61,706 nucleotides of DNA from Candidatus Amesbacteria bacterium GW2011_GWC2_45_19 (GCA_001001555.1 LCKS01000001.1:18360-80065); one strand, 5' to 3'. Shown: positions 46,981 through 61,495, numbered from the stretch's first letter. Numbers and translations: made by a program. The notes: generated from the letters alone by a model not told the origin.

Positions 46981-47550
46981 GTGAATGCAAAAAAAGTTCG
47001 GGCCGGGATTAAAGCTCTTTTATCAGCCCTGAATACAAATTTTGACTGGATGTTGATTCCTTCAAGATCAGGAACGGTCAGGCGCATGCACACGATTCAT
47101 TACACCAGCTTCGAAGCAGAATTCAGCAAATTCTATCCTAGCAGCGTTTACGGGGGAATGAACACTTTGCGCCGTAGCGGCCTGGTTGAATTTCGGGAAA
47201 CTCCCCAGGGAACCGAAGTCCGGATTACCGACGCGGGCCGGACGCAAGTTCTTAAATATCAGTTAAGTAACTTACAAATCGAGCCGCAGAAAAAATGGGA
47301 TAAAAAATGGCGGTTAATATTTTTTGATGTGGAGGAAATGAATAGATCCAAACGGAACCGTTTTCGGGAACTGCTTTTGGGATTAGGACTCAAGCCCCTG
47401 CAGCGCAGTGTTTTTGTTTACCCATATCCTTGTTACAATGAAATGAAGTTCATCCGTGAAGTTATAGGAGTTCCGCACGGAGTTAAATTAGTAACGGCCG
47501 AAGAAATAGAAAACGATGAGGAATTAAGGGTCATCTTTAAACTCGATTAA
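46981..47550 (+). CDS. PaaX-like / wHTH transcriptional regulator with a Cas2-fold-like C-terminal domain
   Basis: 189 aa, GTG start. LRRSGLVEFRETPQGTEVRITDAG (wHTH), and KKWRLIFFDVEEMNRSKRNRFRELLLGLGLKPLQRSVFVYP. Confidence 0.45.
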   Translation: MNAKKVRAGIKALLSALNTNFDWMLIPSRSGTVRRMHTIHYTSFEAEFSKFYPSSVYGGMNTLRRSGLVEFRETPQGTEVRITDAGRTQVLKYQLSNLQIEPQKKWDKKWRLIFFDVEEMNRSKRNRFRELLLGLGLKPLQRSVFVYPYPCYNEMKFIREVIGVPHGVKLVTAEEIENDEELRVIFKLD

Positions 47551-47617: not shown

Positions 47618-48865
47618 ATGATAAAGTTTTACCAAATGAAGTGGTGGGGAATTGCATTACTGCCTTTCTTTTTTTGTCCACTTAAAATTTATGCCTCGAT
47701 TGGAATAAATGAGTTTCAGGTCGAACCCTCGGGATCAAGTCAATGGATTGAACTTTATAACTCTGGACCTGATTCACAAGATATATCAGGTTGGTTTATT
47801 GACGATGATGGAGGTACAACAAAGTTCACAATTCCCACAAATACAGTATTAACCCCCAATGCTTGTATGTCGTTTCAAAGTGGCAGCTTTTTTTGGAATA
47901 CTGCTTCGGGCGACAAAGCTAGGTTGTTGTCTGGTGACACTATAATTGATGAATACCAATATTCTAGTAGTCCTGGAAATAATGTATCGTTTGGTAGATT
48001 ACCTGACGGAACTGGTGGCTGGACCACTTTCAGTAATCCAAGTAGAGACAAATTAAATAATACTAACACCTCTTGTTTATCTTTACCTACACCCTCACCA
48101 TCTTCAACTCCATTATCAACTCCCTTGCAAACACCAGCTGTTTCCCCGACTCCAACACCCAATGATTACTCAAATTTATCCATTTCAGAATATCTGCCAT
48201 ATCCAGATAGTGGAAATGAATGGGTAGAAATCTATAATGGGAATGATTCTGAAGTGAATTTGTATGGTTGGTTTGTCGATGATGTTGCTGATGGTGGTAG
48301 TGCACCGATAGGCATTTCTGGAACAATCAGCGCCAAAACTTATAAGCAATTTTATTTGTCCGACTCATTTCTTAATAATAGTGGAGACGATGTTCGATTG
48401 TTGAATGGTAGTAAAATTGAAAAAAACAAAACATCATTTTCTGCATCAACTAAAGCGAAATCCTGGTCAAAAGATAGTTCAGGCAACTGGTGTCAAATTG
48501 ATCCAACACCCAATTCCTCCAATCCTAGTTGCCCAACACTCACATCTGCCCCTTCGCCTTCGGCTTCGACAGGCACAAACACCCCCAAACCCAGCCCTAC
48601 TCCAAAATCTAGCTCGACCCCCACCTCTACTCCAACAGCCAAACCCTCTCCCACGCCAAGCATATCACCCCCTACCCTCCCCCCTCTTACTTTAAGAGGG
48701 GGGACCGAGGAGAGTGATATTAAGGAGACTCCGACCGTTCTCTCTTCTTCCACCCAACGCAACATCAATTTCCCAGCCATCGCCCTGATCGCCGTCGGCG
48801 GGATTGTCTTTATCGCCTCCGTAGGCCTTATAATCAGAGGGTATGTCCATCCGCCGCCGGATTAA
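47618..48865 (+). CDS. surface protein with two lamin-tail domains, Pro/Ser/Thr linkers and a C-terminal TM anchor
   Basis: 415 aa. INEFQVEPSGSSQWIELYNSG..ISGWFIDDDGG and ISEYLPYPDSGNEWVEIYNGN..LYGWFVDDVADGG (LTD signature). PTPSPSSTP-type linkers. C-terminal hydrophobic helix. Confidence 0.7.
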   Translation: MIKFYQMKWWGIALLPFFFCPLKIYASIGINEFQVEPSGSSQWIELYNSGPDSQDISGWFIDDDGGTTKFTIPTNTVLTPNACMSFQSGSFFWNTASGDKARLLSGDTIIDEYQYSSSPGNNVSFGRLPDGTGGWTTFSNPSRDKLNNTNTSCLSLPTPSPSSTPLSTPLQTPAVSPTPTPNDYSNLSISEYLPYPDSGNEWVEIYNGNDSEVNLYGWFVDDVADGGSAPIGISGTISAKTYKQFYLSDSFLNNSGDDVRLLNGSKIEKNKTSFSASTKAKSWSKDSSGNWCQIDPTPNSSNPSCPTLTSAPSPSASTGTNTPKPSPTPKSSSTPTSTPTAKPSPTPSISPPTLPPLTLRGGTEESDIKETPTVLSSSTQRNINFPAIALIAVGGIVFIASVGLIIRGYVHPPPD

Positions 48866-49223
48866 ACATTGGCTACCCACTCTGGCCTGGGCAATTCTCA
48901 TTTTCTCCTTTTCCTCTCAACCCACGCTCACCGCCAACCAAGTTTACTGGCAGGACTTCGTTATCAAAAAATCTGCCCACCTCTTCGTTTACGCTGTCCT
49001 GGCGATACTAATTTACCGCTCGCTCAAACTTACCTCCCGCTTTTCCAAATTATACTTATTCCTTTTCACTTTAATTCTAGTAGTCTTATACGCCGTTTCT
49101 GATGAATTCCATCAAACTTTCAGTCTCGGTCGCACTCCCACCCTGCGCGATGTCTTCATTGACATCGCCGGGGGTTTGACAGGACTTATAGTAAAGACTA
49201 AAATCGGCTCCAGTGCCCCTTAA
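48843..49223 (+). CDS. VanZ-family membrane protein
   Basis: 126 aa. Four TM helices and an SDEFHQ motif. Confidence 0.7.
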   Translation: MSIRRRIKHWLPTLAWAILIFSFSSQPTLTANQVYWQDFVIKKSAHLFVYAVLAILIYRSLKLTSRFSKLYLFLFTLILVVLYAVSDEFHQTFSLGRTPTLRDVFIDIAGGLTGLIVKTKIGSSAP

Positions 49224-52200
49224 GAAGCTTTTCAGCTTCCTGCTCTCCTTCCTCCTTCTTTTCCAAGGCAATGCTTCCTATCTGGTAGCTTTTGCCCAAG
49301 AAGCCACCGAATCTGCTACCCAAACCGTTGTTGAACCAACTCCAACCCCCACCCCTTCGTCCACCCCTGCCCCCGAGCCGACTTTGGACCCCAATCTTAT
49401 TCCGATTCCTGTCCCCACCCCTATCCCTGAATGGCAGACAATTGATGGCGTGGACATCACTACTAGCCCGATCACTGAAGGTCACGCATATCGATTCCGG
49501 GACACAGCAGTCACGGTGACTTTTACCAAAGTCACTCAGTCCGCCCCTCTCAGAATAAAAGAAGTCCAAGTTGGTGACGCCACGGGCTACGACATTACTT
49601 CAGACATGCCCGACGGGAGTTTTATATACGACTTGACACTTCCTAACCCTAATCCAAACCAAGAAGCCAAGGTCCAGTATTCTGAAGACGGCCAAACTTA
49701 TCAAGAATTGCCAGCGGAAGAACAAAACAACATTTTTGTTATCAAGAATCTGGACCATTTCACTATTTTTATAGTCCGCCCAGATACTCCAACAGATGAT
49801 GGTTCGTCTACTACTAATGATTCTTCCGGAGGAACGGTCTGTGTGGTAGGTTCCGGCTCAAACAATTGTTACCAAACTATCCAAGCTGCTGTAGACGCTG
49901 CGTCCGCTGGTGACCAGATTAAAGTAGCGGATGGAACATATTCGGATCCAGTCTCCATCGATAAACCTGGACTGACCATTTCTTGTTCCGGTACCGGCGC
50001 GGAAATCAATACTAATGGAGACATAGGCCTTTCTCTTCTGCCTGGCGCGGACAACACTACCATTGAAAACTGTTTAATTACCGGAAATGGTGACGGCATC
50101 AATTTAAACGGCGTGACCGGAACCACTATCCGCAATAATTCCATTACCGACAATTCCTACGTTACTAGTGGCATTTACATCATCGACTCTTCAAGTGTCA
50201 CCATTTCCAACAACACCATTTCCAACAACCAGATGGGGATAGACATTACTGAAACAGAAGAGGGAAATTCGTCAGATATTGTCATCAGCGGCAATATTTT
50301 TGATTCCAACAGTGATTACAATATTTTTAACAACTCTGTCAGTGAGGTAACAGCTACCGGCAATGACTGGATGACTACTGACGGCTCAATTGTCAAAGAA
50401 TATATTTACGATTACCTAGACGACGAATTTCTGGGCTTAGTTTCCTACGACACTACCGACCCAGTTGCCAACGCGGGACCTGACGTAGTAACTGGTTTGG
50501 AATTTGTCCAAGACGGATCGGGAAGCAGTGACGAGTACAAAATCGACACTTACTCCTGGTCCCAAACCTCCGGTCCCGGGACTGTCATTTTCGGATCGCC
50601 CGACTCCGATTCCACAACAATCTCAGCGGATATTGACGGTGATTACACCATTGAGTTAATAGTCACCGATTATCAGGGTAATTCCAACACTGATGAGTTT
50701 TTGCTAACATGGGACACAACCGCTCCGGTTTTAGCTGAAGTAACCCCTGTTTCTACGCCTACTAATAACCCCACCCCCGGCTATACGTTCAATTCCGATG
50801 AAAGCGGAAGTATTTCATATGGGGGATCCTGTTCCAGCGTTACAAGCTCTGCGGCCGCGGTAGATAATACGATAACATTCAACTTCCTGCCAGACGGGAC
50901 ATATTCAGACTGTACGATAACAGTTACTGATTCGGCTGGAAATCCAAGTGATCCTTTAAGCGTGAGTACTTTCACTGTTGATACTCAAGATCCTGTTTCT
51001 TCATTTAGTTCTCCTGCCGATGGCAGTTTTTGGAACGAGCCAATTGAAATTTCCGGAAGTTCGACTGATGTCCCAGATACAACTGTTGATTACGTTACTT
51101 TATCTTATTCCATCTCAGGAGAAGATGATTGGTATGAGATAACTGAAATCACAAACGACTCTTTAGACGAGCCTTTTAACTGGAATTATAATTGGGAGCC
51201 GGAAGATGGTGAGGACATCTACGATATCATGGCTGAGGCTACCGATACGGCGGGAAATACTGAATCAAGTCCAGTTGTGGAGGAAGTGACCTATGACGTT
51301 ACGGGGCCTTCCGTAACCGATATATCAATTTCTCCTGATCCTACCAATCATGCTCCATCAATCCTGGCATTGGCAGAAGATTTTTTGAGTATAATCGCTT
51401 CGGCGATTTTCCAAGTCGACGATTCGGACTTTAGCGATCCGTTGCCGCTCTCTGCCTTCGACGGTGACTTTGATTCTCTCTCTGAATATTTTTTTGCCGA
51501 CGAATATAACGGCATGCCTTATCCTGGTGAAGGACTTCATACCTTATATGTTGGAGCATATGATTTTGCGGGAAATTTCGGTTTTAACTTTGCCTCTTTT
51601 ACAGTAGACACATTCTCTCCGGAATCTTCTTTTAGTTCACCTGCAGAAGGAAGTATTTGGAGCTCATCAATCGATATATCAGGCTCATCCAACGATGAGA
51701 CAGAGGATACTGTTGATTATGTTCAACTTTTCTATAGAGAATCAGTAGGAGAGGATGAAGAAGAAAATGAATGGACAGAAATTGATACCGATTTCGAGAA
51801 TGGAGGTACGCAGCCCTTACAAAATACAGGAGGCGGCAATCCTTTTGAATGGAACTTTGATTGGACTCCTTCAAGCGATGGAACTTTTGACATAAAAGCT
51901 GAAGCGACTGATACGGCAGGCAACACCGAAACGAGTCCGGTGGTAGAAAACATAACGTATGATACTACCGCACCTACAACGCCAGTCGCCGACCCAGCGG
52001 CAGGTGATTATATGAGTGACCAATCGGTGACTTTGGCTAGTTCCGACAGCTTGAGCGGTGTGGATAAGATTTACTACACGACGGACGGCTCCACGCCGGA
52101 CAAGACTAAAACGGAATACACCGGTACCCCAATCACGGTAGACAAAGACATGACAATTAAAGCCATTGCCTACGACAAGGCCGGTAACGCTAGCGATGTT

Positions 52201-53082
52201 TTGGAAGCAGTTTATGGAATTGCGCCAAAAATATCAGCAGAAGCTTCCTCAGAGGTAACGTCAACATCTACAACCATCACTTGGACCACAGATGATCCTT
52301 CGACGTCTCGCGTGATTTATGATATGGTATCACACGGAGAACTTGGAGCCGCACCAAATTATGGTTACGCAAATTCGACAGTAGAGGATTCAACGAAAGT
52401 TACGGCCCACAGCGTAGATATAACCGGGCTGACAGCGGGGACCACTTATTATTACAGAACCATTTCCCACGGATCGCCGGAAGCGGTTAGTGAAGAAAAG
52501 AGCGTTACAACTACCTCCTCTTCCTCTTCTTCCAGTTCCAGCAGTAGTGGAGGAAGCGGAACGTCAGCAGCCAGCGCTCCTTCCTGCAACGATACCAAGC
52601 CTGGTAGCGCTCCGGTTCTTCTGTCTGCTGTCTCTGCAGGAGCCAATAGCGTCACCTTAACTTGGTCCAAGGCAACCAGCCCGGTGACCTATTATTTAAT
52701 AGCTTACGGCTTGGGAACGGGTCAGCAACAGTACGGAAATCCGAATGCGGGTGATTCTAATACCACGTCTTATACAGTTTCCGGCTTATCCGGAGGAACA
52801 ACGTATTACTTTAAAGTCAGGGCCGGTAATGGTTGCGCTCCTGGAGAATTCTCAAATGAGCTGTCGGTCAGACCTACCGGCGGTGTAGTTACCGCCGTTC
52901 CAGAGGGCTTTGCGGTAGGGGTTTTGGGAGAAAGTATTGAAGAAGTAAAAACCGTTGAACCTACCCCCTCTCCGGGAATCAAAGGGATTAGCACCCCCAA
53001 CTTCAATTGGTGGCTGATCATCATCCCCACCGCACTTTTGGGTCTCCTTATCTCTGGACTTCTGCTCCGACGTCGCACATAA
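49213..53082 (+). CDS. giant (1289 aa) surface protein: signal peptide, right-handed beta-helix, PKD/Ig-like modules, FN3 modules, poly-Ser linker, C-terminal TM plus RRRT tail
   Basis: Parallel beta-helix repeats (NTTIENCLITGNGDGINLNG..IRNNSITDN..ISNNTISNNQMGIDI). Two tandem Ig-like modules ending ..EATDTAGNTE(S/T)SPVVE. FN3 modules (TTYYYRT.., TTYYFKVRAGNGCAPGEFSNE). Tail WWLIIIPTALLGLLISGLLLRRRT. Confidence 0.75.
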   Translation: MPLKKLFSFLLSFLLLFQGNASYLVAFAQEATESATQTVVEPTPTPTPSSTPAPEPTLDPNLIPIPVPTPIPEWQTIDGVDITTSPITEGHAYRFRDTAVTVTFTKVTQSAPLRIKEVQVGDATGYDITSDMPDGSFIYDLTLPNPNPNQEAKVQYSEDGQTYQELPAEEQNNIFVIKNLDHFTIFIVRPDTPTDDGSSTTNDSSGGTVCVVGSGSNNCYQTIQAAVDAASAGDQIKVADGTYSDPVSIDKPGLTISCSGTGAEINTNGDIGLSLLPGADNTTIENCLITGNGDGINLNGVTGTTIRNNSITDNSYVTSGIYIIDSSSVTISNNTISNNQMGIDITETEEGNSSDIVISGNIFDSNSDYNIFNNSVSEVTATGNDWMTTDGSIVKEYIYDYLDDEFLGLVSYDTTDPVANAGPDVVTGLEFVQDGSGSSDEYKIDTYSWSQTSGPGTVIFGSPDSDSTTISADIDGDYTIELIVTDYQGNSNTDEFLLTWDTTAPVLAEVTPVSTPTNNPTPGYTFNSDESGSISYGGSCSSVTSSAAAVDNTITFNFLPDGTYSDCTITVTDSAGNPSDPLSVSTFTVDTQDPVSSFSSPADGSFWNEPIEISGSSTDVPDTTVDYVTLSYSISGEDDWYEITEITNDSLDEPFNWNYNWEPEDGEDIYDIMAEATDTAGNTESSPVVEEVTYDVTGPSVTDISISPDPTNHAPSILALAEDFLSIIASAIFQVDDSDFSDPLPLSAFDGDFDSLSEYFFADEYNGMPYPGEGLHTLYVGAYDFAGNFGFNFASFTVDTFSPESSFSSPAEGSIWSSSIDISGSSNDETEDTVDYVQLFYRESVGEDEEENEWTEIDTDFENGGTQPLQNTGGGNPFEWNFDWTPSSDGTFDIKAEATDTAGNTETSPVVENITYDTTAPTTPVADPAAGDYMSDQSVTLASSDSLSGVDKIYYTTDGSTPDKTKTEYTGTPITVDKDMTIKAIAYDKAGNASDVLEAVYGIAPKISAEASSEVTSTSTTITWTTDDPSTSRVIYDMVSHGELGAAPNYGYANSTVEDSTKVTAHSVDITGLTAGTTYYYRTISHGSPEAVSEEKSVTTTSSSSSSSSSSSGGSGTSAASAPSCNDTKPGSAPVLLSAVSAGANSVTLTWSKATSPVTYYLIAYGLGTGQQQYGNPNAGDSNTTSYTVSGLSGGTTYYFKVRAGNGCAPGEFSNELSVRPTGGVVTAVPEGFAVGVLGESIEEVKTVEPTPSPGIKGISTPNFNWWLIIIPTALLGLLISGLLLRRRT

Positions 53083-53091
53083 TAATCCTTG

Positions 53092-53271
53092 ATGTGGAAA
53101 TTCCTGCGCCATCTGTTTTTTCCTCACGAATCCAATAATCAGCGGGCCAAAATCTTGCATCCCTCCGGCCTGGCTTTAATAATCGGTATCTTCGTCGTCT
53201 TCCAACTAACCATTTTCTGTCCGGGTTCAGGGCAGATAAGGGGCAGCTTCACTTTTGGTAGGGTAATGTAG
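53092..53271 (+). pseudogene. displaced 5' fragment of a CAP-domain gene (paralogous to the start of 60644-61495)
   Basis: MWKFLRHLFFPHESNNQRAKILHPSGLALIIGIFVVFQLTI compares with MLKFLRHLFFPHDSNNQRAKFLHPSSLVVTIGLFIVFQVTINQLTI. It then diverges and stops. Confidence 0.7.
53098..53213 (+). repeat. left copy of a diverged direct repeat bracketing the island
   Basis: aaattcctgcgccatctgttttttcctcacgaatccaataatcagcgggccaa...tcttccaactaaccat aligns with 60650-60780. I count roughly four-fifths identity by eye. The right copy carries a 12-nt internal duplication. Confidence 0.75.
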
Positions 53272-53289
53272 TATAATCCCATAGTTAAT

Positions 53290-53313
53290 TAGCCCAAGAT
53301 GGGCTAGTTTTTT
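53290..53313 (+). promoter_or_regulatory. leader hairpin plus U-run directly before the ATG at 53317
   Basis: TATAAT at 53272-53277, then TAGCCCA-aga-TGGGCTA (53290-53306), GTTTTTT, act, ATG. No Shine-Dalgarno. Confidence 0.45.
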
Positions 53314-53316
53314 ACT

Positions 53317-54132
53317 ATGGGCAGAAAATTTTTTATTACATTTGTATTATTGCTTTTATCCTTTTTCCTCGCTCCACGACCGATATATGCTGTTAGCACT
53401 GAAACTTGTGAAGACAACAGTCCCACAGGCAAGCCGGTGCTCACTTCAGCCGTACCAGGAAAAGATAGTGTCACACTAACCTGGACAGAAGCTCAAGATC
53501 CAGTAACCCATTATCTTATTGCTTATGGTAGATCAGAAACAGAAATAGAGTATGGTAATCCGAATGTAGGAGGAAGAAGAACCACTACCTATACAGTTGG
53601 CGAGCTCACAAAAGGAGTGAAATATTATTTTAAGGTACGTCCTATAAACGGTTGTAGACCAGGTGATTTTTCAAATAAACTTCCTGCAACTCCCGGTGTT
53701 ATTGTTAAATCTGGTGTTACTAGGGGAAGAGTTGCAAATATACCCAATTTATCAATTTATAAACCAGTACTTGGAGCAAGTGTATCAGCAACATCTTCAG
53801 CAAAGGTGGAGGTAAAAACACTAGCTCCTTCAGCTATAACCGTCGCCAAATGTACAATGTGTATAAGTTGGCAATTATTAATTACAGAAGCAATACTTTT
53901 GATCTTGTTTTTCTATCTTGCAGAGAAAAATACTTTCTTAAAGCCAATTTTTTCCATAGCGATTCCAACCGTAATATATATTTTGTTTTGGGAGATTAAC
54001 CAAGCATGTCCGCAAAATGGATTTGCCTGTAAATATTTCCTTCCACTTGAAGTAATCATCTTTATAGTTATTGAAATTGCTTACAAAAACATAAGCTATA
54101 AAACAAAGGAAAGAAAGAATAACTTATGTTGA
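53317..54132 (+). CDS. signal-peptide FN3-module protein with a multi-TM C-terminal region
   Basis: 271 aa. The FN3 module CEDNSPTGKPVL..VTLTW..HYLIAYG..YYFKVRPINGCRPGDFSN is paralogous to modules at about 52576-52880 and about 59676-59960. The C-terminal half has 2-3 TM helices. It overlaps the synthase start. Confidence 0.65.
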   Translation: MGRKFFITFVLLLLSFFLAPRPIYAVSTETCEDNSPTGKPVLTSAVPGKDSVTLTWTEAQDPVTHYLIAYGRSETEIEYGNPNVGGRRTTTYTVGELTKGVKYYFKVRPINGCRPGDFSNKLPATPGVIVKSGVTRGRVANIPNLSIYKPVLGASVSATSSAKVEVKTLAPSAITVAKCTMCISWQLLITEAILLILFFYLAEKNTFLKPIFSIAIPTVIYILFWEINQACPQNGFACKYFLPLEVIIFIVIEIAYKNISYKTKERKNNLC

Positions 54133-57038
54133 ATACAATAATCAATAATGTTGGGTTTATCTTTAACAGTGCCGCCTTTTATTCTCAGCAATATTTTGAT
54201 AGATACTCATTTTTAGTTCCTCTTGGAGTAATCGGAATATGGCGATGGTCTGTCTGGATGATAAAAGAGGTTATTGGGCTTCATTACCGTCCTAAAACAA
54301 AGGAATATAATGCAAAAGTCTCCTTGGTGATTCCTGTCTATAATGAGAATCCGCAAGTATTTACACAAGCTCTTAACTCGTGGAAGAAAAATAATCCATC
54401 AGAGATAATTGCGGTAATTGACTATACGGATTTGACGTGCATTGAAATTTTTAAGAAATTTAAAGAGACCTTTTCGGGTGCTAAACTTATTATTACTAAA
54501 ACTCCCGGGAAACGGCCGGCTTTAGCAGATGGGATTAAAGTTGCAAAAAGTGAAATTGTAGCCTTGGTTGACAGTGATACAATTTGGGATGATAATGTTT
54601 CAAGAAATGGTCTTCCCCCTTTTGTTGATCCTAAAGTGGCAGGGGTTGCTACATACCAAAGCGTTTTGCAGCCTAAAACTTTTGCACAAAAAGTTTTTGA
54701 TATACAGCTTGATTTGAGATATAGACATGAGTATCCATTCTTAGCCGCTTCGGGAGATGCTCTTGTTTGCCTCTCTGGGAGAACGGCATTTTACAGGCGT
54801 GAAGTTATTACTCCCATGCTTTCTGATTTAGTAAATGAGAAGTTCATGGGAGTACCGGTTATTAGCGGTGATGATAAAAGATTGACATACCTTGTGCTCG
54901 CAGCAGGATGGAAGGTTGCTTATCAAAGTACATCTCACGTTTATACGCCTGGGATGGCAGAACTGGGTGCATACCTTAAACAAAGACTGCGTTGGACAAG
55001 AAACAGTCTTCGTGCTGATTTGTCAGCAATCTTTAACGGATGGCCTATTCGGCATCCCGCTCTTCTCTTTTTTCAAATTGATAAGTTCCTTCAGGGCTTT
55101 GTGGTAATTTTAAGCCCCATTTATTTCTTTGTATCGATCTATCTTCATCTATGGATAGCTGCGTTCGCAATTTTTTGTTGGTGGTTTATCAGTAGAACTA
55201 TAAAGTTGTATTATCCCCACCTTTCTTATAAGCCCAAAAATATTGTTATTTTACCCGGATATGTGCTCTATACATTTCTTGCCGGGATACTTAAAATTTA
55301 TGCACTTTTTACACTCAATACTCAAGGCTGGATAACACGCTGGGATAAATCAAGGTTACCTCAGTTTAGATTACTTCTAGCGGCCCCTTCCTATCTTGCT
55401 ACTTTATCAGTTGTCTTGTTTCTTACATATGGAGTTTATATTTATAAAGAACACACATATTTAATTCCAAAATCACAAAGAGAACAATTGCTGGCAAGTG
55501 CTTTGCCCAGTATTCAAGCAGATGTTATTGCAAGTAGCGCAGTTTTAGGAGAATCAACATTAGCCCAAAAGGAGTTGTTTACTAATCGCTATGAAGCAAA
55601 AGGAAACGAAAATTTTATCGAGATATCCAATAAATTCGGAGTTGATGTAAACCAATTATATTATGCAAATATGGCCAAAGCACCAAATAGAAATATTACA
55701 CCAGGGACAATTTTATCAATCCCAGGAAAAGATATTCAACTACAACCAAATACTTCTCTTACCAAACTAACATATTCGACTAACCCTATAACCGTCCAAC
55801 ATGATAAAAAAACAAATACTCTTCTGGTTACAGGAAGGGGTAGGCAGATAACTCTAAAAGATATTGTGAGCAATGGAGGGAAGAGTTATTTAGAAGAAAT
55901 TTCATCAAAAATCTGGCTTGCAAAAGCTACAATTTTTCTTTCGGACGGTATTACTTTGAGGCTTGACAAAAACGAAGTAGAATGGCTTAAACTCGAGAGT
56001 AATAAAAAAGGATTTGTAATGCTTCGTTCTCTAAATAGCGACATTATTATTAACGGAGTAAAAATAACTTCTTGGGATACCGAAAACAATGATTACGATA
56101 AAGAACTCAAGGATGGAAGAAGTTTTATTATGGTAAAGGATAATTCAAGAATGGATATTTATTCATCCGAGCTTTCTTATTTAGGTTATCCAACTTCGTC
56201 AGATATTGCCGCATCTCCTTACGGTGTTTCTTGGAAGCTAAGTAACCTCAAGTTAAAAAAAGAACTTCTTACTGGAGAAGTTATCAACAGTAAATTCCAC
56301 CATAATTATTTTGGTGCTTACACTTATGGGGCAACTGGTATGCTGTGGAAGGGAAATGAATTTTATGAAAATGTAAGGTATGGGCTTGACCCCCATGATG
56401 ATTCCAATGGTTTTTTGGTGGAAGATAACATTGCCAGAGATAATGGTTCGCATGGTATTATTTTTTCGAAACGCAGCATGTACAATACGGTTCGTAATAA
56501 TATCTCCTACAATAATAAATTGCACGGGATAATGCTTCATGAAAAATCTGACTTTAATATAATTGAAAATAACACCGTAACCGGCAATACAAGCGGAATT
56601 GCCCTCTATCGTTCAAGTAACAACATTGTTCGCAACAACACCATAGCAAACAATAGACATGGAGTAAGGGCAAATGCAGGTTCAGAGGGTAACATTGTGC
56701 AGAATAACAGCATAACGGGAAGTGGATTATATGGAATTTATTTCTATGATAAGGCGAATAACAATTCTGTTTCAAATAATACATTTGAATATAACGACGT
56801 AGGAATTTATATTAAATCAGACTCAAATAATATTAGTAAGAATTCTTTAATAAATAATGCTGTTGGAGTTTACTTCCAAGATCAAGCTTCGAACAATGTC
56901 TTAGCTGACAATCAAATTAAGCAAAGCGGTATTTATGGAATTTATACAAAAGTTGCCAACGAAGTGAGCAATATTCTTGGGGTCAACGATTTATATAGAA
57001 ATCGTAAAGATGTGGCAGGGATGAACGAAGCAGATTAA
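54126..57038 (+). CDS. processive GT2 polysaccharide synthase (Alg8/HasA/NodC-like) fused to LysM and a right-handed beta-helix, C5-epimerase-like (AlgG-like) domain
   Basis: 970 aa. LVIPVYNE, VDSDT, SGDDKRLT, QRLRW (54981-54995). Several TM helices. LysM module (IEISNKFGVDVNQLYYAN...GTILSIPG). Beta-helix repeats (NNISYNNKLHGIMLH..IENNTVTGNTSGIAL..VRNNTIANNRHGV..) with a DPHD motif (56388-56399). Confidence 0.7.
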   Translation: MLNTIINNVGFIFNSAAFYSQQYFDRYSFLVPLGVIGIWRWSVWMIKEVIGLHYRPKTKEYNAKVSLVIPVYNENPQVFTQALNSWKKNNPSEIIAVIDYTDLTCIEIFKKFKETFSGAKLIITKTPGKRPALADGIKVAKSEIVALVDSDTIWDDNVSRNGLPPFVDPKVAGVATYQSVLQPKTFAQKVFDIQLDLRYRHEYPFLAASGDALVCLSGRTAFYRREVITPMLSDLVNEKFMGVPVISGDDKRLTYLVLAAGWKVAYQSTSHVYTPGMAELGAYLKQRLRWTRNSLRADLSAIFNGWPIRHPALLFFQIDKFLQGFVVILSPIYFFVSIYLHLWIAAFAIFCWWFISRTIKLYYPHLSYKPKNIVILPGYVLYTFLAGILKIYALFTLNTQGWITRWDKSRLPQFRLLLAAPSYLATLSVVLFLTYGVYIYKEHTYLIPKSQREQLLASALPSIQADVIASSAVLGESTLAQKELFTNRYEAKGNENFIEISNKFGVDVNQLYYANMAKAPNRNITPGTILSIPGKDIQLQPNTSLTKLTYSTNPITVQHDKKTNTLLVTGRGRQITLKDIVSNGGKSYLEEISSKIWLAKATIFLSDGITLRLDKNEVEWLKLESNKKGFVMLRSLNSDIIINGVKITSWDTENNDYDKELKDGRSFIMVKDNSRMDIYSSELSYLGYPTSSDIAASPYGVSWKLSNLKLKKELLTGEVINSKFHHNYFGAYTYGATGMLWKGNEFYENVRYGLDPHDDSNGFLVEDNIARDNGSHGIIFSKRSMYNTVRNNISYNNKLHGIMLHEKSDFNIIENNTVTGNTSGIALYRSSNNIVRNNTIANNRHGVRANAGSEGNIVQNNSITGSGLYGIYFYDKANNNSVSNNTFEYNDVGIYIKSDSNNISKNSLINNAVGVYFQDQASNNVLADNQIKQSGIYGIYTKVANEVSNILGVNDLYRNRKDVAGMNEAD

Positions 57039-57130
57039 ATGATACTTGCACCTTTTTTAAAAAAGTGTAACATACCATAACATACATCTTCATCTAGCTG
57101 CCCCAGGGTGAATTTCTAAGAGGAAATAAT

Positions 57131-58042
57131 ATGATAAAACCATCAATTTGTATTGTAGGTCCTGGAATTGTTGGGCAAGCAACGGGGAAAGTTTTGGTAG
57201 AAAAGGGAGTAAGGGTGGGTTTTTTGGGAATTGTAAAAGAACAAATTGAAAAATTAAAAAAAGAGAGTTACAACGCATTTACAAAGGATGAGATTCTTAA
57301 CGGGAGTTATGATTTTGACATAACAATGTTTACTGTCCCGACTTTCACAGTGAATGGAAGAATTGACCTAAGTATCCTTGAACAAGCATCGGTGGATTTG
57401 GGAAAGCGCCTTAAACACTTCAGGAAATATCATTTAGTTGTAGTTAAAAGCACTGTTCTCCCGGGCACAACAGAAGATCTTGTTATTCCTACAATAGAGA
57501 AATACTCAGGTAAAAAGGTCGGAAAAGACTTCGGTGCGTGCATGAACCCCGAATACCTTCGACAAGAAACTTCTTATAACGATACCCTAAATCCCTGGAT
57601 AATTTTAATTGGAGAATACGATAGGAAATCCGGTGACAGGCTTGAATTGATATATAAAAATAAATTCGATTGTCCATTGTTCAGGTGCGAAATTAAAGAG
57701 GCCGAAATGCAAAAATATATCCACAATATTTTTAATGCAACAAAAATTACCTACTTCAACGAAATGCGTCAAATTGCAAATAACCTGTGTATCAATGCCG
57801 ATAAAATCTTCAAATATTCCGCGATAAGTTGTGAAGGAATGTGGAACCCAAACTATGGAATAAAGAACAAGGGACCATTTGACGGGAGCTGTCTTCCGAA
57901 AGACATACAGGCGTTTTGTTTTTGGGCACAAACCAGTGGGTTTAACGCGTCTTTATTAAAAACAGTTATTGATGTAAACAATAAACTTGCTAGCAAGCTA
58001 GGTCTTCACGAATTCAGCTTCAAAAGCAGAGATATCTTATAA
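57131..58042 (+). CDS. UDP-glucose/GDP-mannose 6-dehydrogenase-family enzyme, short form (303 aa)
   Basis: ICIVGPGIVGQATG Rossmann motif, VVKSTVLPGTT, MNPEYLRQE, and catalytic-Cys motif DGSCLPKD. It ends before the usual C-terminal nucleotide-sugar-binding domain. Confidence 0.7.
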   Translation: MIKPSICIVGPGIVGQATGKVLVEKGVRVGFLGIVKEQIEKLKKESYNAFTKDEILNGSYDFDITMFTVPTFTVNGRIDLSILEQASVDLGKRLKHFRKYHLVVVKSTVLPGTTEDLVIPTIEKYSGKKVGKDFGACMNPEYLRQETSYNDTLNPWIILIGEYDRKSGDRLELIYKNKFDCPLFRCEIKEAEMQKYIHNIFNATKITYFNEMRQIANNLCINADKIFKYSAISCEGMWNPNYGIKNKGPFDGSCLPKDIQAFCFWAQTSGFNASLLKTVIDVNNKLASKLGLHEFSFKSRDIL

Positions 58043-58069
58043 AGGTATAATTTGCTTATCTAGCCCGCA

Positions 58070-58963
58070 ATGCGTTATAAAATTAAGGTAATGAATACTG
58101 AGCAACCCCCGGACAATTTATTGAAAGGGCATAAAATTCCTTTGTGGCTCATGGCATCTATTTTGCTGATTTTTATAGCCATAATTATTCGTTTTATTTC
58201 CCCAAAAGTATATTTGGAGACTAATACAAATGTGGTCGATACAAATTCTACCAAGAAACCAGCGCCCTCATTACTACCTACTGAAGTTATCTACCCCTCA
58301 CAAGTACTCAATCTCACTAATTGGAAAATAACAATCCCAACTATTACTTCCGGAGATGCAATAGAAATAAAACAGCCGCGATTGGCAACTTACAACCTTA
58401 ATCCTTGGTTTACAGTTTTGCCAGAAGAAAACGCAGTACGTTTTAGGGCTGCGGTGAATGGTGCAACGACAAGCGGTTCAGGTTATCCCCGCTCAGAGCT
58501 TAGAGAAATGGTCGACAATGGCAAGACAAATGCGAGCTGGCCCTCGAATGAAGGAACACATACTATGTTTTTAGACCAAGCAATCACTGCTGTACCAAAA
58601 ACCAAACAAGATGTAGTAGCGGGGCAAATTCACGATAACAACAAAGACATTATTGTGGTGCGACTTAATTATCCCACTCTTCACGTCAGGATTGATAGAA
58701 CAAACGTCTATACATTAGATTCTAACTATACGCTTGGAAAAAGATTTACTGTTAAGTTTGTAGTTAGCGATGGTTTGACCAAAGTCTATTACAACAACGG
58801 TATTGATCCTGTATATACTCTTAACAAAAGATATTCAGACGCTTATTTCAAAACAGGTGTTTACACTCAGTCAAATTGTAGTAAGGAAGGTTCTCCCTCT
58901 CTCTGTAATGACAACAACTATGGTGAAGTCATTGTTTATCAAGCAGCGGTCACGCATCAGTAA
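58070..58963 (+). CDS. membrane-anchored polysaccharide lyase family 7 (alginate/polyuronate lyase)
   Basis: 297 aa. N-terminal TM helix. The three PL7 signature blocks are present: YPRSELRE, AGQIHD, AYFKTGVYTQS. Confidence 0.75.
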   Translation: MRYKIKVMNTEQPPDNLLKGHKIPLWLMASILLIFIAIIIRFISPKVYLETNTNVVDTNSTKKPAPSLLPTEVIYPSQVLNLTNWKITIPTITSGDAIEIKQPRLATYNLNPWFTVLPEENAVRFRAAVNGATTSGSGYPRSELREMVDNGKTNASWPSNEGTHTMFLDQAITAVPKTKQDVVAGQIHDNNKDIIVVRLNYPTLHVRIDRTNVYTLDSNYTLGKRFTVKFVVSDGLTKVYYNNGIDPVYTLNKRYSDAYFKTGVYTQSNCSKEGSPSLCNDNNYGEVIVYQAAVTHQ

Positions 58964-58984
58964 TTACCAATAACAACGAAACAA

Positions 58985-59013
58985 TTGACAAATTAAAAAC
59001 CGTACAATATAAT
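58985..59013 (+). promoter_or_regulatory. consensus sigma70 promoter
   Basis: TTGACA (58985-58990), exactly 17 nt, TATAAT (59008-59013). Confidence 0.7.
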
Positions 59014-59018
59014 GCCTC

Positions 59019-59052
59019 AATTAACTGCCCTAAGGGCAGTTAATTGTTTTTA
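59019..59052 (+). promoter_or_regulatory. 12-bp perfect leader hairpin plus U-run directly before the ATG at 59056
   Basis: AATTAACTGCCC-taa-GGGCAGTTAATT (59019-59045), then GTTTTTA, tac, ATG. It starts about 6 nt after the -10, so it would be 5'-terminal on the mRNA. No Shine-Dalgarno. Confidence 0.5.
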
Positions 59053-59055
59053 TAC

Positions 59056-60096
59056 ATGAAAAAATTATTGACGGCTTTATTCTTAATAGTTTTTGCGGCA
59101 GGTTTACTCTTTATAAAACTCTCCCCTACTCTTGTAAAAGCAGATACAGGAGCGCCCGTAACAATAACAGCTACATACAATTCAAGTACAGGACAATTAA
59201 ATGCTTCAGGCTCCTATGCTTGGGAGGAATGTGAACCCGGCGAAGAGACAAACATTCTAGGATTTGCCCTTTTTATAAATGGCGGAACTCCTGCCATTAA
59301 TGATAGTAATGCTTTAGATGGATCCTCAATGCACCTTGCAAATAGTGGAAATCCTTGCACAACAACACCCGATAATTGGGTAGACAATAATCATGTTTTA
59401 TCTTCTGCCCCCGCAAATGTTTGTGTTGTTGTTTATGATGTAAGAGTTGACGATTCGGCGGATCCAGGAGGTATTCATTCTTTAATCGGAGCAGGCGGGG
59501 ATTATAATACAGATAATTCTTGGAATTTCAATGGCAGCTCTTATCTGGAAGGGTCTTGTACTGCTCCAGAAGTTATAACACCGACAGAAACACCCACGCC
59601 TGCTCCTACTCCAACACCCACGCCGACACTCTCATTGAGTAATGGTCCAATTGGTGGCTCTAATGGAGGCGGATCAACTCAATGTACCGATGCTAAACCG
59701 GGAATACCGGGATTACTTTCTGTAAACAAGAATAGCTCCTCTACTGCCGTTTTGGCTTGGTCACTAGTTTCGTCTGCCACAGATTACTCTATCCTATATG
59801 GTCTATCTTCTGGAAACTATATCTACGGAGTGCCAAGGACAGGGAATACTGATCACTACACTGTTGGCAGTTTGAATCCTGGTGTCAATTACTACTTTGC
59901 CGTAAAGGCTGTAAATGGGTGCACTCCCGGAGATCCTTCAAATGAGAGATCCACAGGATCAGATAGAGGCCAAGTGTTGGGAGCTTCAACTATGGCTGCC
60001 ACTGGAATTGCAGATCAGCTGGTAATGGTAACGGTGTTAGTAATGGGAGTATTGATAACAGTAAGATCGGGGTATGCGTACGCGAAGGCAAAGTAG
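59056..60096 (+). CDS. secreted protein: unknown Cys-containing N-domain, PT linker, FN3 module, C-terminal TM plus basic tail
   Basis: Start moved to MKKLLTALFLIVF. TPTETPTPAPTPTPTPT linker. FN3 module CTDAKPG..VLAW..YSILYG..YYFAVKAVNGCTPGDPSN. Tail VLGASTMAATGIADQLVMVTVLVMGVLITVRSGYAYAKAK. Confidence 0.65.
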   Translation: MKKLLTALFLIVFAAGLLFIKLSPTLVKADTGAPVTITATYNSSTGQLNASGSYAWEECEPGEETNILGFALFINGGTPAINDSNALDGSSMHLANSGNPCTTTPDNWVDNNHVLSSAPANVCVVVYDVRVDDSADPGGIHSLIGAGGDYNTDNSWNFNGSSYLEGSCTAPEVITPTETPTPAPTPTPTPTLSLSNGPIGGSNGGGSTQCTDAKPGIPGLLSVNKNSSSTAVLAWSLVSSATDYSILYGLSSGNYIYGVPRTGNTDHYTVGSLNPGVNYYFAVKAVNGCTPGDPSNERSTGSDRGQVLGASTMAATGIADQLVMVTVLVMGVLITVRSGYAYAKAK

Positions 60097-60634
60097 GCAC
60101 CTGGTAAGAATGGCAGTGGGGATAGTAATTGTGGTGTTTTCGATTTGGTATCTAGGTTACAGCCAGGGAGTTTTATCATTTAAAACTACACCTCGGGAAA
60201 CTGTAAAAACAGTAAGGTCAAGTCCGCCAGCAGAATTAAAAATACCTAATGCTAAAATAGATTTAAGACTAGACGGAGGTATAATTGAGAACGGAATTTG
60301 GCAAATTTCAGCTAAGGGTGGGTCGTATCTGGTCACAGGGGCTTATCCGGGTGAGGGGGGGAACATAATAATTTATGGACATAACAAATGGAATATTTTG
60401 GGTAGACTAAAGACTGTCACAAAAGGCCAGGCGATAATATTGGTAACTCAGGAGGGAAAAGAGCATAAATATCAAGTAGAAAATGTAATGGTGGTGAGTC
60501 CAAATGAAATAGAAGTAGTTGAACCAAGAAATAATGAGATATTAACAATCTATACGTGTACGGGGTTTTTGGACAGGTTGCGATTTGTGGTAGTAGCCAC
60601 CCCCATTGACTCTGAAATACAAAAGCCGCAATAA
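60074..60634 (+). CDS. sortase-family transpeptidase
   Basis: 186 aa. TM anchor. Catalytic His (NIIIYGHN), Cys (LTIYTCTG) and Arg (RLRFVVVA) in canonical order. Confidence 0.8.
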   Translation: MRTRRQSRHLVRMAVGIVIVVFSIWYLGYSQGVLSFKTTPRETVKTVRSSPPAELKIPNAKIDLRLDGGIIENGIWQISAKGGSYLVTGAYPGEGGNIIIYGHNKWNILGRLKTVTKGQAIILVTQEGKEHKYQVENVMVVSPNEIEVVEPRNNEILTIYTCTGFLDRLRFVVVATPIDSEIQKPQ

Positions 60635-60643
60635 TGGGTAGTA

Positions 60644-61495
60644 ATGCTCAAATTCCTGCGCCACCTGTTTTTTCCTCACGACTCCAATAATCAGCGGGCC
60701 AAGTTTCTTCATCCTTCATCCCTGGTTGTGACCATCGGTCTTTTTATCGTCTTCCAAGTAACCATCAACCAACTAACCATCAACTACCCGCAAATATTAG
60801 GTTACGCTTCCCAGATATCCCCCGAAGAAATAATTCGCTTGACCAATATTCAACGCACATCCTCTGGCCTATCTGAAGTCGAACTGAATTCTCAACTTTC
60901 CGCCGCCGCCGCCCAAAAAGCCGCAGATATGATTGCCCGTGATTATTGGGCTCATGTCTCGCCCGTAGGCACCCAGCCCTGGAACTTTATTACCCAGGCC
61001 GGCTACTCTTACCGCTATGCCGGTGAAAACCTGGCCCGGGATTTTTCCGACGCCAAATCCGTCGTCGACGCTTGGGTAGCTTCTCCTTCGCACCGGGAAA
61101 ATCTGCTCAATTCCCGGTATCAGGACATTGGAATAGCTGTTATCGATGGCCAACTTGAAGGCCGGGAGACCACTCTGGTGGTGCAATTTTTTGGCGCTAA
61201 ATTATCTGCCGCCCCCAGCGTGAGTTCAGTTTCTACTTCCATTGTCAAACCGGTCTCCGCCGCCACCTCTCCGTCTACTATGAACTATGAACCAAGAACT
61301 ATTTCTCCCTTTGATGTGACGAAGGCCGTTTCTCTGACACTGCTCATCATTTTTGTGACCGTTTTAGTTATCGACCTGGTAGCTGTGTATCAAAAGAAGA
61401 TCACCCGCTGGACCAGTAAAAGTTTTGCTCATCTGTTATTTATGTTAGCCTTATTAATAGCCGCCTTTATTATTTCCAAAGGCCAAATACTATGA
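60644..61495 (+). CDS. CAP/SCP/PR-1-like (YkwD-type) domain protein with N- and C-terminal TM helices
   Basis: 283 aa. LSAAAAQKAADMIARDYWAH...YAGENLA...VDAWVASPSHRENLL...IGIAV. Confidence 0.75.
   Translation: MLKFLRHLFFPHDSNNQRAKFLHPSSLVVTIGLFIVFQVTINQLTINYPQILGYASQISPEEIIRLTNIQRTSSGLSEVELNSQLSAAAAQKAADMIARDYWAHVSPVGTQPWNFITQAGYSYRYAGENLARDFSDAKSVVDAWVASPSHRENLLNSRYQDIGIAVIDGQLEGRETTLVVQFFGAKLSAAPSVSSVSTSIVKPVSAATSPSTMNYEPRTISPFDVTKAVSLTLLIIFVTVLVIDLVAVYQKKITRWTSKSFAHLLFMLALLIAAFIISKGQIL
60650..60780 (+). repeat. right copy of the direct repeat bracketing the island
   Basis: See 53098-53213. Confidence 0.75.

Follow-up and report, generated by a model that had tools for sequence, protein, structure and literature searches.

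A single-chain GT2 synthase, LysM and AlgG-like protein from Candidatus Amesbacteria that, with two neighboring genes, looks like a minimal pathway for an alginate-like polymer

Candidatus Amesbacteria bacterium GW2011_GWC2_45_19 encodes a protein in which a GT2 synthase, its membrane channel, a LysM module and an AlgG-type beta-helix are joined in one chain, and from their sequences this fusion and two neighboring genes look like an uncharacterised, minimal route to an acidic polymer resembling alginate. The identities of the domains, their fold, the conserved motifs, the linkage of the genes and their distribution are direct observations; coordinates are those of the window, the whole 61,706-nucleotide stretch of DNA analysed, and all features lie on its + strand. 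On balance we lean towards a self-contained synthase-dependent exopolysaccharide machine that polymerises, exports, holds at the wall and C5-epimerises a polyuronate, most likely an alginate-like one. The sequences tentatively suggest beta-1,4-mannuronan partly converted to guluronate as the polymer.

In the mechanism we propose, for a host cell thought to be without an outer membrane, the short AlgD-like dehydrogenase encoded downstream would supply a uronic-acid donor, and the GT2 domain would polymerise this nucleotide-activated uronic acid in the cytoplasm and push the chain through its own membrane channel, of the hyaluronan synthase (HAS) type. The LysM beside the chain exit would hold the C-terminal part of the protein at the peptidoglycan, and some residues would be C5-epimerised as the chain passes through the groove of the AlgG-type beta-helix, with His757 abstracting the proton, Tyr752 positioning a water proposed as the proton donor, and Lys782 neutralising the carboxylate. 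A membrane-anchored PL7 lyase may then trim or release the product. The CPR/Patescibacteria and the Chloroflexota, in which the fusion occurs, are generally considered to have no outer membrane.

The fusion gene (54126–57038) is a single uninterrupted open reading frame with an ATG start, coding for 970 aa. Two N-terminal membrane helices (aa 3–46, 54132–54263; helices 2–26 and 28–51 in the structure model), equivalent to HAS TMH1-2 and seen in the hydropathy profile and in the low K+R content of loop 21–27, precede the cytoplasmic GT2 (GT-A) catalytic domain (aa 60–300, 54303–55025; Pfam Glyco_tranf_2_3, E 9e-28). These are followed by a transmembrane helix pair (aa 311–366, 55056–55223), equivalent to HAS TMH3-4 in the HAS alignment and the model; an interface helix (aa 370–395) and cytosolic gating loop (aa 396–414), together at 55233–55367 and placed by the HAS alignment; and a single last transmembrane helix (aa 415–440) with a polar helical extension (441–459), at 55368–55502, predicted from hydropathy, the model and K+R densities to lead the chain outside. 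The remainder consists of the LysM domain (aa 487–533, 55584–55724), identified by Pfam, family matches and the model, and the right-handed beta-helix (aa 556–967, 55791–57026; Pfam Beta_helix, E 9e-53). A prior sequence-only reading had proposed this open reading frame and its sub-features, and all lie where it placed them: the hydrophobic helices put at about 55050–55450 span 55056–55445 overall (aa 311–440), the LysM put at 55584–55725 ends at 55724, and DPHDDS at 56388–56405 (aa 755–760) is exact. Its view of the fusion as polymerisation plus modification is supported as far as computation reaches. The structure model has a pTM of 0.63, and its inter-domain geometry is uncertain.

The synthase half carries DSD149 (54570–54578), GDD248 (54867–54875) and QRLRW286 (54981–54995), all invariant among 35 homologues, and QxxRW is present in 58/58 fusions. 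Its closest solved relatives are the class I HAS enzymes, both by sequence (E 3e-15, far beyond chance) and by fold (TM 0.6–0.65). The family profile scores 80–84 bits against HAS and about 97 bits against NodC, the latter (97.5 bits) below the NodC equivalog cut-off of 550 bits. We rejected the synthase as an Alg8 orthologue: Alg8 (24% identity, E 1e-9) scores 55–67 bits against the 80–84 of HAS, and a homologue of Alg44, the PilZ co-polymerase, is absent both from the window and from 79 loci.

As far as TMH5, the helices come in the same order as in HAS. In the gating loop G-W-I-T-R-W (55326–55343), W402, T404 and R405 are invariant, and W402 aligns with the gating-loop Trp W491 of XlHAS1; the low pLDDT of the loop is as expected of a mobile element. 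This W-x-T-R loop is cytosolic in HAS (PMC11750622). It is followed by one transmembrane helix in the fusion versus two in HAS, giving 2 + 3 helices rather than the HAS layout of two helices at the N-terminus and four at the C-terminus with both termini cytosolic, and the TMH6 position is predicted to be taken by the extracytoplasmic extension. Loop K+R densities across the 35 homologues obey the positive-inside rule (0.17–0.29 in predicted cytosolic loops, 0.02–0.10 in predicted outside loops). Because a single helix follows the cytosolic gating loop and the loops obey this rule, LysM and beta-helix are predicted to lie outside the membrane, and HAS homology, helix count and charge distribution thus agree with the topology that the sequence-only reading had put forward. 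Sequence and model together argue strongly for an extracytoplasmic C-terminal part.

The top match of the beta-helix is AlgG by sequence (E 5e-36), NCBIfam (6e-40) and fold (7e-19), again far beyond chance. AlgG, the comparison that had been suggested, is also the best structural match, with Foldseek aligning the domain to 4nk6 at a TM of 0.69 normalised to AlgG, over all 424 AlgG residues; pLDDT is mostly >90 in this region. The family profile scores 154 bits against AlgG and 156–164 bits against Pseudomonas AlgG, and a sequence search among solved structures gave relatives that are all mannuronan C5-epimerases. The NCBIfam AlgG model NF038177 matches at 137 bits over positions 121–426 of 519, below its equivalog cut-off of 700 bits, and on this basis the domain is an AlgG homologue and no equivalog. 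In the motif YGLDPHDDS (56379–56405), Y752, D755, H757 and D758 align column for column with AlgG Tyr314, Asp317, His319 and Asp320. The AlgG Arg345 position is occupied by K782 (35/35), followed by an invariant R783, such that the positive charge is kept and the residue differs; the adjoining NNISYNN (aa 791–797; 56469–56516 with K782/R783) matches N-N-[KR]-S-[YH]-x-N of AlgG. Nine residues of the active-site region (Y752, G753, D755, H757, D758, D759, S760, K782 and R783) are invariant in 35 sequences down to 51% identity, and YG.DPHD is found in 54/58 fusions. The catalytic roles of Tyr314, DPHD and Arg345 in AlgG are known, with Arg345 neutralising the substrate carboxylate (PMC4444821, PMC4436075), and these papers bear out the statement in the sequence-only reading that DPHD is essential. 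We infer with moderate confidence, from these alignments, that the beta-helix acts as a C5-epimerase.

Two genes directly downstream, one for an AlgD-like dehydrogenase and one for a PL7 lyase of the G type, had been missed by the sequence-only reading and strengthen its case. The first (57131–58042) codes for a nucleotide-sugar 6-dehydrogenase of 303 aa (family length 284–353 aa) that ends where AlgD reaches about residue 310, and it departs from the three-domain architecture of AlgD, a GDP-mannose 6-dehydrogenase, in the absence of the C-terminal nucleotide-sugar-binding domain. It retains Cys, Lys, Asn and Asp as catalytic residues (C254-LPKD258, K195 and N199 invariant). AlgD is its best match among solved enzymes (37% identity to P. 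syringae AlgD), at 226 bits, whereas UDP-Glc dehydrogenases score 187 and at most 140, a margin of only 39 bits over an archaeal UDP-Glc dehydrogenase, and the best named NCBIfam match is the archaeal UDP-glucose dehydrogenase AglM. Because the nucleotide-binding domain of AlgD is missing, the substrate is not readable from homology. The second gene (58070–58963) codes for a membrane-anchored PL7 lyase (Pfam Alginate_lyase2, PF08787, 2e-38, 133 bits versus a cut-off of 29.7); the PL7 family also includes glucuronan lyases. The encoded protein is 48% identical to the polyguluronate lyase 1uai (E 7e-60), and the motifs RXEXR, QXH and YXKAGXYXQ are represented by RSELR141, QIH186 and YFKTGVYTQ259, the last with Thr for Ala. 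Exceptions to the QIH rule are known in PL7 (PMC8618178). A strong terminator-like hairpin with a 13-bp stem (59018–59046) follows. No further Pseudomonas alg genes are present here, with homologues for 3/12 alginate proteins only, and no AlgA-like gene for GDP-mannose supply lies near any locus examined.

Upstream, a gene (53317–54132) that shares its last 7 nt, at the stop, with the start of the synthase gene codes for a protein with a signal peptide, an fn3 domain (Pfam fn3, 2e-10) and three C-terminal transmembrane helices; it directly precedes the fusion in 10/50 loci, the named ones all Microgenomates, and is a possible accessory subunit. A terminator-like hairpin upstream of the operon (53287–53309) is weak evidence, such sites being no commoner than in shuffles. 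The region is a low-GC island flanked by direct repeats, the left copy (53098–53213) duplicating, in truncated form, the 5' end of a CAP-domain gene and the right copy (60650–60765) lying inside the start of the intact gene (60644–61495); the copies are identical at 97/115 positions, with a local alignment score of 130 versus a shuffle maximum of 27.

It is possible, and in our judgment unlikely, that the same machine makes another polymer, with UDP-sugars going into a GlcA-containing chain (hyaluronan-like, glucuronan or cellubiuronic-like) and the AlgG-fold domain converting GlcA to iduronic acid or modifying another uronate; the product might contain GlcNAc, with LysM binding to it. The nearest characterised synthase relatives, HAS and NodC, use UDP-sugars and Alg8 is more distant, the dehydrogenase has an uncertain substrate and AglM as its best named match, and the GDP-mannose genes were not found nearby. 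A synthase gene paired with a 6-dehydrogenase gene is also the layout of the has/cps3 operons (streptococcal hasA-hasB; type 3 capsule). Against this, three independent components, the AlgD-like dehydrogenase, the AlgG-like beta-helix and the PL7 enzyme resembling a polyG lyase, fit alginate chemistry, and we know of no AlgG-fold enzyme that acts on GlcA. In addition, the gating-loop Gly of HAS, which is essential in CvHAS (G455A inactivates; PMC11750622), is Ile in the fusion.

It seems improbable that the beta-helix works chiefly as a lyase, or that it is bifunctional like AlgE7, which is both lyase and epimerase (PMC4444821, PMC8824271). Cutting or release of the chain would then set its length, and its composition would not be tailored. 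The possibility was raised in the sequence-only reading, and with this fold both epimerases and lyases abstract the proton at C5 and have similar catalytic sites (PMC4444821, PMC8824271); because of this shared mechanism the sequence is compatible with lyase activity (PMC4444821). Epimerisation by AlgG also lowers the molecular mass of alginate (PMC4436075), a further point in favor of cleavage. However, no lyase is among the solved sequence relatives found, the proposed proton-donor Tyr is invariant, and the second gene downstream already codes for a dedicated PL7 lyase, as does a gene within 8 kb of the fusion in 15/50 loci, so that there is less need of another.

The LysM module is weak in the fusion protein itself (20.0 bits versus the Pfam PF01476 cut-off of 20.9), is matched at E<=1e-3 in 29/35 family members (best 1e-11), and has the beta-alpha-alpha-beta LysM fold in the model at 487–532 (strand 487–490, helices 497–504 and 508–515, strand 529–532). 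By suggesting wall attachment it lends something to a very doubtful reading in which the beta-helix has no catalytic role and serves as a guide or as a scaffold spanning the wall, shielding the chain and leading it across the peptidoglycan, as AlgG in Pseudomonas has a structural role that does not depend on its activity. Alginate is still produced, and the polymer protected, when AlgG is catalytically dead (PMC4436075). The strict invariance of the nine residues and the presence of YG.DPHD in 54/58 fusions instead indicate selection on the active site itself.

The fusion is common, with 58 full-length examples among species-representative genomes of CPR/Patescibacteria and Chloroflexota and >120 clusters at 90% identity. 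Database entries carry generic names only, with no informative annotation found, and our literature search found no paper describing the architecture, which answers the database search that had been proposed. The short dehydrogenase gene lies <=300 bp from the fusion in 41/50 assessable loci, and the pair also occurs in Chloroflexota. A separate AlgG-like gene is found near a GT-only gene in 7/8 loci, and natural split versions include P0137 and those of some other genomes (L063, L080, Caldilineaceae). The latter could speak for the fusion as an assembly or gene-calling artefact of two adjacent genes, which is effectively refuted by the uninterrupted reading frame, the full-length fusions in independent species-level genomes, the cluster count and the conserved linker of TMH5 and LysM.

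A bolder version of the alginate-like reading, to which we give rather less than even chances, is that CPR/Patescibacteria and Chloroflexota make genuine alginate (mannuronate/guluronate) through a two-gene core, the fusion and a GDP-mannose dehydrogenase truncated by loss of its nucleotide-binding domain and perhaps active while docked to the synthase, evolved independently of Pseudomonas Alg8-Alg44. If true, alginate synthesis would have arisen a third time in evolution, and the system would be a candidate origin of the 'alginate-like exopolymers' in wastewater sludge, where Caldilineaceae are common; with alginate as the product, the family would also provide further epimerases and a way of making alginate in hosts that have a single membrane. 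Acidic, possibly gel-forming exopolysaccharides are predicted for filamentous Chloroflexota and for CPR bacteria, a group in which the biology of the surface and the attachment to hosts are little understood. The dehydrogenase without its nucleotide-sugar-binding domain is an enzymological puzzle. More generally, the fusion bears on the open question of how polymerisation is coupled to polymer-level modification in alginate and other synthase-dependent polysaccharides. In Pseudomonas this coupling rests on a fragile multi-protein envelope complex, whereas here synthase, channel, wall anchor and putative epimerase are on one chain, a compact system open to expression, reconstitution and imaging as one protein, with natural split versions for comparison.

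The fusion shares features with several known systems. With the secreted Ca2+-dependent AlgE-type epimerases (AlgE4 2PYG, AlgE6 5LW3) it has in common the beta-helix fold and a DPH(D/E) motif, but these are far more distant (35–43 bits), have R-modules that the fusion lacks, and act after secretion, away from the membrane. Like class I HAS (CvHAS 7SP6, Xenopus HAS1 8SMM) it combines a GT-A domain bearing DxD, GDD(R) and QxxRW with interface helices and a gating loop that has Trp, Thr and Arg, builds the channel from its own helices and needs no co-polymerase, and its gene adjoins a 6-dehydrogenase gene as in the streptococcal hasA-hasB operon. It differs in having about 20% identity, a W-I-T-R-W rather than W-G-T-R/S-G loop, no TMH6 and a C-terminus predicted outside and bearing two extra domains, and in its neighbor being AlgD-like, unlike HasB. 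AlgG of Pseudomonas and Azotobacter (PDB 4NK6, NF038177) is likewise a right-handed beta-helix, about 30% identical across some 310 aa, with the YG.DPHD.S motif, the basic-residue position and the N-N-x-S-Y-x-N segment, and works outside the cytoplasmic membrane, as predicted for the fusion, on a chain from a GT2 synthase. However, AlgG is a soluble subunit of the AlgK/AlgX/AlgE scaffold, whereas the fusion domain is covalently joined to the synthase through a transmembrane helix and LysM, has Lys for Arg345 and carries extra C-terminal coils (aa about 880–967). Relative to the Pseudomonas machinery (AlgD, Alg8-Alg44, AlgK, AlgE, AlgG, AlgX, AlgL, AlgIJF and AlgA), the PilZ/c-di-GMP co-polymerase, outer-membrane pore, TPR scaffold and acetylation system are absent, the lyase is PL7 rather than PL5, and the dehydrogenase lacks the C-terminal domain. 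The functional logic is nonetheless the same, in that a 6-dehydrogenase would provide the donor, a GT2 enzyme would polymerise it, an AlgG-type domain would epimerise the chain outside with a lyase alongside, and polymerisation and modification would be physically coupled.

The fusion protein, 970 aa in length, is encoded by a single unbroken open reading frame (54126–57038, forward strand), and all of the sub-features that the sequence-only reading had described are found where it placed them. These include a GT2 core (residues 60–300; Pfam Glyco_tranf_2_3, E 9e-28), hydrophobic helices (residues 311–440; 55056–55445), a LysM domain (residues 487–533; 55584–55724) and a parallel beta-helix (residues 556–967; Pfam Beta_helix 9e-53, NosD 1.5e-40) with the DPHDDS motif at exactly 56388–56405. 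The LysM domain scores slightly below the Pfam cut-off in this protein (20.0 against 20.9 bits), is matched in 29 of 35 members of the fusion family at E<=1e-3 (best 1e-11), and has the beta-alpha-alpha-beta LysM fold in the AlphaFold model (residues 487–532). An assembly artefact is ruled out by the recurrence of the fusion in many genomes.

The synthase half carries the signatures of processive GT2 enzymes (D149-S-D, G248-D-D and Q286-R-L-R-W), which are invariant across the 35 homologues at identities down to 51%. Its similarity to class I hyaluronan synthases (HAS) is evident in sequence (E 3e-15, with the alignment extending across the membrane region), in the family profile (80–84 bits) and in fold (TM 0.6–0.65); NodC is the top NCBIfam model, at 97 bits against a cut-off of 550. 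Alg8 sequences from Pseudomonas alg operons score 55–67 bits with the same profile, and the P. syringae protein is 24% identical (E 1e-9), a match weak enough to rule out orthology with Alg8. These scores make the synthase a separate clade of processive GT2 enzymes, orthologous to neither HAS/NodC nor Alg8 and somewhat nearer to the former.

The AlphaFold model of the fusion (mean pLDDT 87) has elements corresponding one to one to those described for Xenopus HAS1 (XlHAS1; PMC11750622). Two N-terminal helices (residues 2–26 and 28–51) precede the GT domain (65–300) and its QxxRW helix (280–304), followed by a transmembrane helix pair equivalent to HAS TMH3-4 (311–339 and 343–366), an interface helix equivalent to IFH3 (370–395), a low-confidence loop containing G-W-I-T-R-W and equivalent to the HAS gating loop (396–414), and one long helix equivalent to TMH5 plus an extension (415–459). 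The gating loop of HAS enters the cytosolic active site (PMC11750622), and W402 of the fusion aligns with its Trp491 in XlHAS1. The HAS chain then re-enters the cytosol through TMH6, whereas the fusion has a single helix after the loop. Mean lysine plus arginine density among the 35 homologues is 0.17–0.29 in the inside loops of the model versus 0.02–0.10 outside. Three independent lines thus predict an extracytoplasmic position for the C-terminal 510 residues, and we strongly infer that the GT domain, the channel, LysM and the beta-helix follow one another from the inside of the cell to the outside. The G-W-I-T-R-W motif itself (residues 401–406; 55326–55343) has isoleucine, at least 90% conserved in the family, where HAS has a glycine whose replacement by alanine inactivates the Chlorella virus enzyme CvHAS (PMC11750622); the family thus has its own variant of a loop that is critical for function.

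The beta-helix is of the AlgG type. AlgG is its top sequence match (4ozz/4nk6, E 5e-36), scores 154 bits with the family profile, is also the top curated match (NF038177, E 6e-40, though at 137 bits against an equivalog cut-off of 700), and is the top fold match for the entire fusion (4nk6, E 7e-19, TM 0.69 across the whole of AlgG). That DPHD is essential in AlgG, as stated in the sequence-only reading, is borne out by the literature: epimerization by P. aeruginosa AlgG needs the motif, and its D324A mutant yields pure polymannuronate (PMC4436075). The motif histidine is thought to take the C5 proton, an arginine neutralizes the carboxylate, and Tyr314 holds a water proposed as the proton donor (reviewed in PMC4444821). 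In an alignment of the fusion family with seven Pseudomonas AlgGs, AlgG Y314, D317, P318, H319 and D320 correspond to Y752, D755, P756, H757 and D758 of the fusion, all invariant or nearly so, and NNISYNN of the fusion is the counterpart of the AlgG segment N-N-[KR]-S-[YH]-x-N. AlgG R345 is replaced by K782, a lysine in 35/35 members and followed by an invariant R783. We infer with moderate confidence that the beta-helix epimerizes C5 of uronate residues in the nascent chain.

The fusion sits in a compact block of genes on the same strand. Downstream, after a 92-nt gap, is a short dehydrogenase gene (57131–58042), whose product belongs to the UDP-glucose/GDP-mannose dehydrogenase family but consists of just the N-terminal and the central domain. 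AlgD is its top solved relative (E 1.5e-39; 37% identity to the P. syringae protein), with a profile score of 226 bits against 187 and <=140 for UDP-glucose dehydrogenases. The protein retains all of the catalytic residues, including NPEYLRE, K195/N199 and the Cys254 nucleophile, but lacks a ~20-aa insert of the AlgD NAD domain and stops at the start of the nucleotide-sugar-binding domain, which is missing in its entirety; the length is consistent, at 284–353 aa in this protein and 52 homologues (related loci L001–L081 and L163). Unbiased clustering of the locus neighbors found no separate gene for the dehydrogenase C-terminal domain or for a co-polymerase. After a further 27 nt there is a PL7 lyase gene (58070–58963) whose product has an N-terminal membrane anchor, the motifs RSELR, QIH and YFKTGVYTQ, and 48% identity (E 7e-60) to 1uai, a polyguluronate lyase; in PL7 enzymes QIH usually, but not always, accompanies G or MG preference (PMC8618178).

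Upstream of the fusion is a gene (53317–54132) whose stop and the start of the synthase gene overlap by 7 nt. Its small product has a signal peptide, followed by an fn3 domain and, at the C-terminus, three transmembrane helices. It could be an accessory subunit, and lies immediately upstream in 10/50 assessable loci, all Microgenomates where named. No genes for GDP-mannose or other sugar-nucleotide synthesis were found in the window, where the open reading frames at 35.6–48.9 kb encode housekeeping or surface proteins, and an Rfam scan found no riboswitch or known regulatory RNA around the operon. Terminator-like hairpins at 53287–53309, upstream of the operon, and 59018–59046, after the PL7 gene, lend weak support to its boundaries, because counts in the promoter and terminator scan were not above those in shuffles.

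In a large protein collection, clustering at 90% identity gives more than 120 clusters of full-length fusions, which are 52–85% identical to the window protein; clustering at 50% gives about 13–15 fusion clusters amid stand-alone versions of either half. The architecture is common in CPR and Chloroflexota, but its public names are generic only. Species-representative genomes yielded 58 full-length fusions, carried by Levy-, Roizman- and Daviesbacteria, WWE3, and Moran-, Falkow-, Andersen- and Nomurabacteria, and, at 39–43% identity, by Caldilineaceae and Ardenticatenaceae. Many carriers are metagenome-assembled genomes titled 'uncultured Gammaproteobacteria', 'Bdellovibrionales' or 'Saccharibacteria' (L005, L006, L009–L013, L043, L047 and others). 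These labels are probably wrong, and the first two are treated as unreliable, because the loci resemble those of Microgenomates and Parcubacteria (fn3 proteins, a sortase, a 0.9-Mb contig).

The short dehydrogenase gene is within 300 bp of the fusion in 41 of the 50 loci, and also adjoins it in a Caldilineales genome; a PL7 lyase is within 8 kb in 15. In 7/8 loci where a gene of the synthase clade codes for the GT alone, AlgG-like proteins, often giant, are encoded separately within 8 kb, and the fusion also occurs in split form (L080; P0137), a pattern of fusion and fission which argues that both activities cooperate. Across loci L072–L079 (Caldilineaceae), L052, L053, L059 and L070, GT-only synthases adjoin one or two very large AlgG-like beta-helix proteins (1200–1400 aa), extra stand-alone AlgG-like genes occur at some fused loci, and DPH[DE] is retained in only 12 of 21 separate beta-helix reading frames. 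Some genomes (L002/L003, L022) have tandem fusion paralogues, 50–67% identical to the window protein with a short dehydrogenase between them, which suggests that one organism may have a pair of synthase-epimerases whose product patterns differ. Only two other neighbors were recurrent in the clustering, both absent from the window and possibly further glycan-processing enzymes: a membrane-anchored protein of ~408 aa that matches Beta_helix weakly (26 related loci; e.g. L068:9583-10749) and a ~456-aa BNR/sialidase-like repeat protein (15 related loci; e.g. L029:5637-7016).

Directly established are the identity of the domains, their fold and conserved active sites, the linkage of the genes and the phyletic spread. 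The polymer is tentatively assigned as mannuronan/guluronan, because for three components (dehydrogenase, epimerase domain and lyase) the nearest characterized relatives belong to alginate metabolism. That of the synthase lies outside it, and nucleotide specificity is not readable from a dehydrogenase without its nucleotide-binding domain. We give somewhat better than even odds to the overall model, a synthase-channel-LysM-epimerase machine with an alginate-like product. The same machine could instead make a GlcA-type polymer, which we consider unlikely. A beta-helix acting mainly as a lyase is improbable; its solved sequence relatives other than AlgG are the mannuronan C5-epimerases AlgE4, AlgE6 and 8xfq/8ja4, with no lyase among them. 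A purely structural role is very improbable, with YG.DPHD present in 54 of the 58 full-length fusions of species-representative genomes.

The operon lies within a 7.4-kb block (53217–60640) with a GC content of 0.38, versus 0.45 and 0.48 in the flanks; it also contains genes for a sortase and a surface protein. A direct repeat lies at its two edges (53098–53213 and 60650–60765; 97/115 identical, alignment score 130, with 27 as the highest score among shuffles), and the left copy duplicates, in truncated form, the 5' end of a CAP-domain gene at 60644; this island-like arrangement suggests acquisition or movement through recombination. Three protein genes and a neighboring sortase gene occupy 49213–53082 (where the C-terminus of the product is concerned), 53317–54132, 59044–60096 and 60074–60634. 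The three proteins share a similar Cys-bracketed fn3 module, after which comes a C-terminal membrane anchor, and the one of 1289 aa additionally has beta-helix, PKD and Ig-like domains; together they resemble the sets of surface proteins typical of CPR bacteria. Two genes upstream of these, unrelated to the fusion, encode a protein of 189 aa with a PaaX central/Cas2-like domain (46981–47550) and one of 415 aa with lamin-tail domains (47618–48865).

When all twelve P. syringae Alg proteins were compared by tblastn with the window and 79 related loci, matches were limited to AlgD, AlgG and, weakly, Alg8; Alg44, AlgK, AlgE, AlgX, AlgL, AlgI, AlgJ, AlgF and AlgA gave no hits, and their absence rules out a diverged copy of the Pseudomonas alg operon. 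The literature search found nothing relevant on the fusion or on alginate genes in CPR or Chloroflexota, and the fusion is absent from an operon survey (PMC7112194) and the epsSMASH preprint. We do not regard the fusion as a new category, because its parts come from known families and it follows the logic of the alginate system. The unusual features are the coupling within a single chain, the truncated dehydrogenase, and the confinement of the fusion, as far as the labels are reliable, to lineages regarded as being without an outer membrane.
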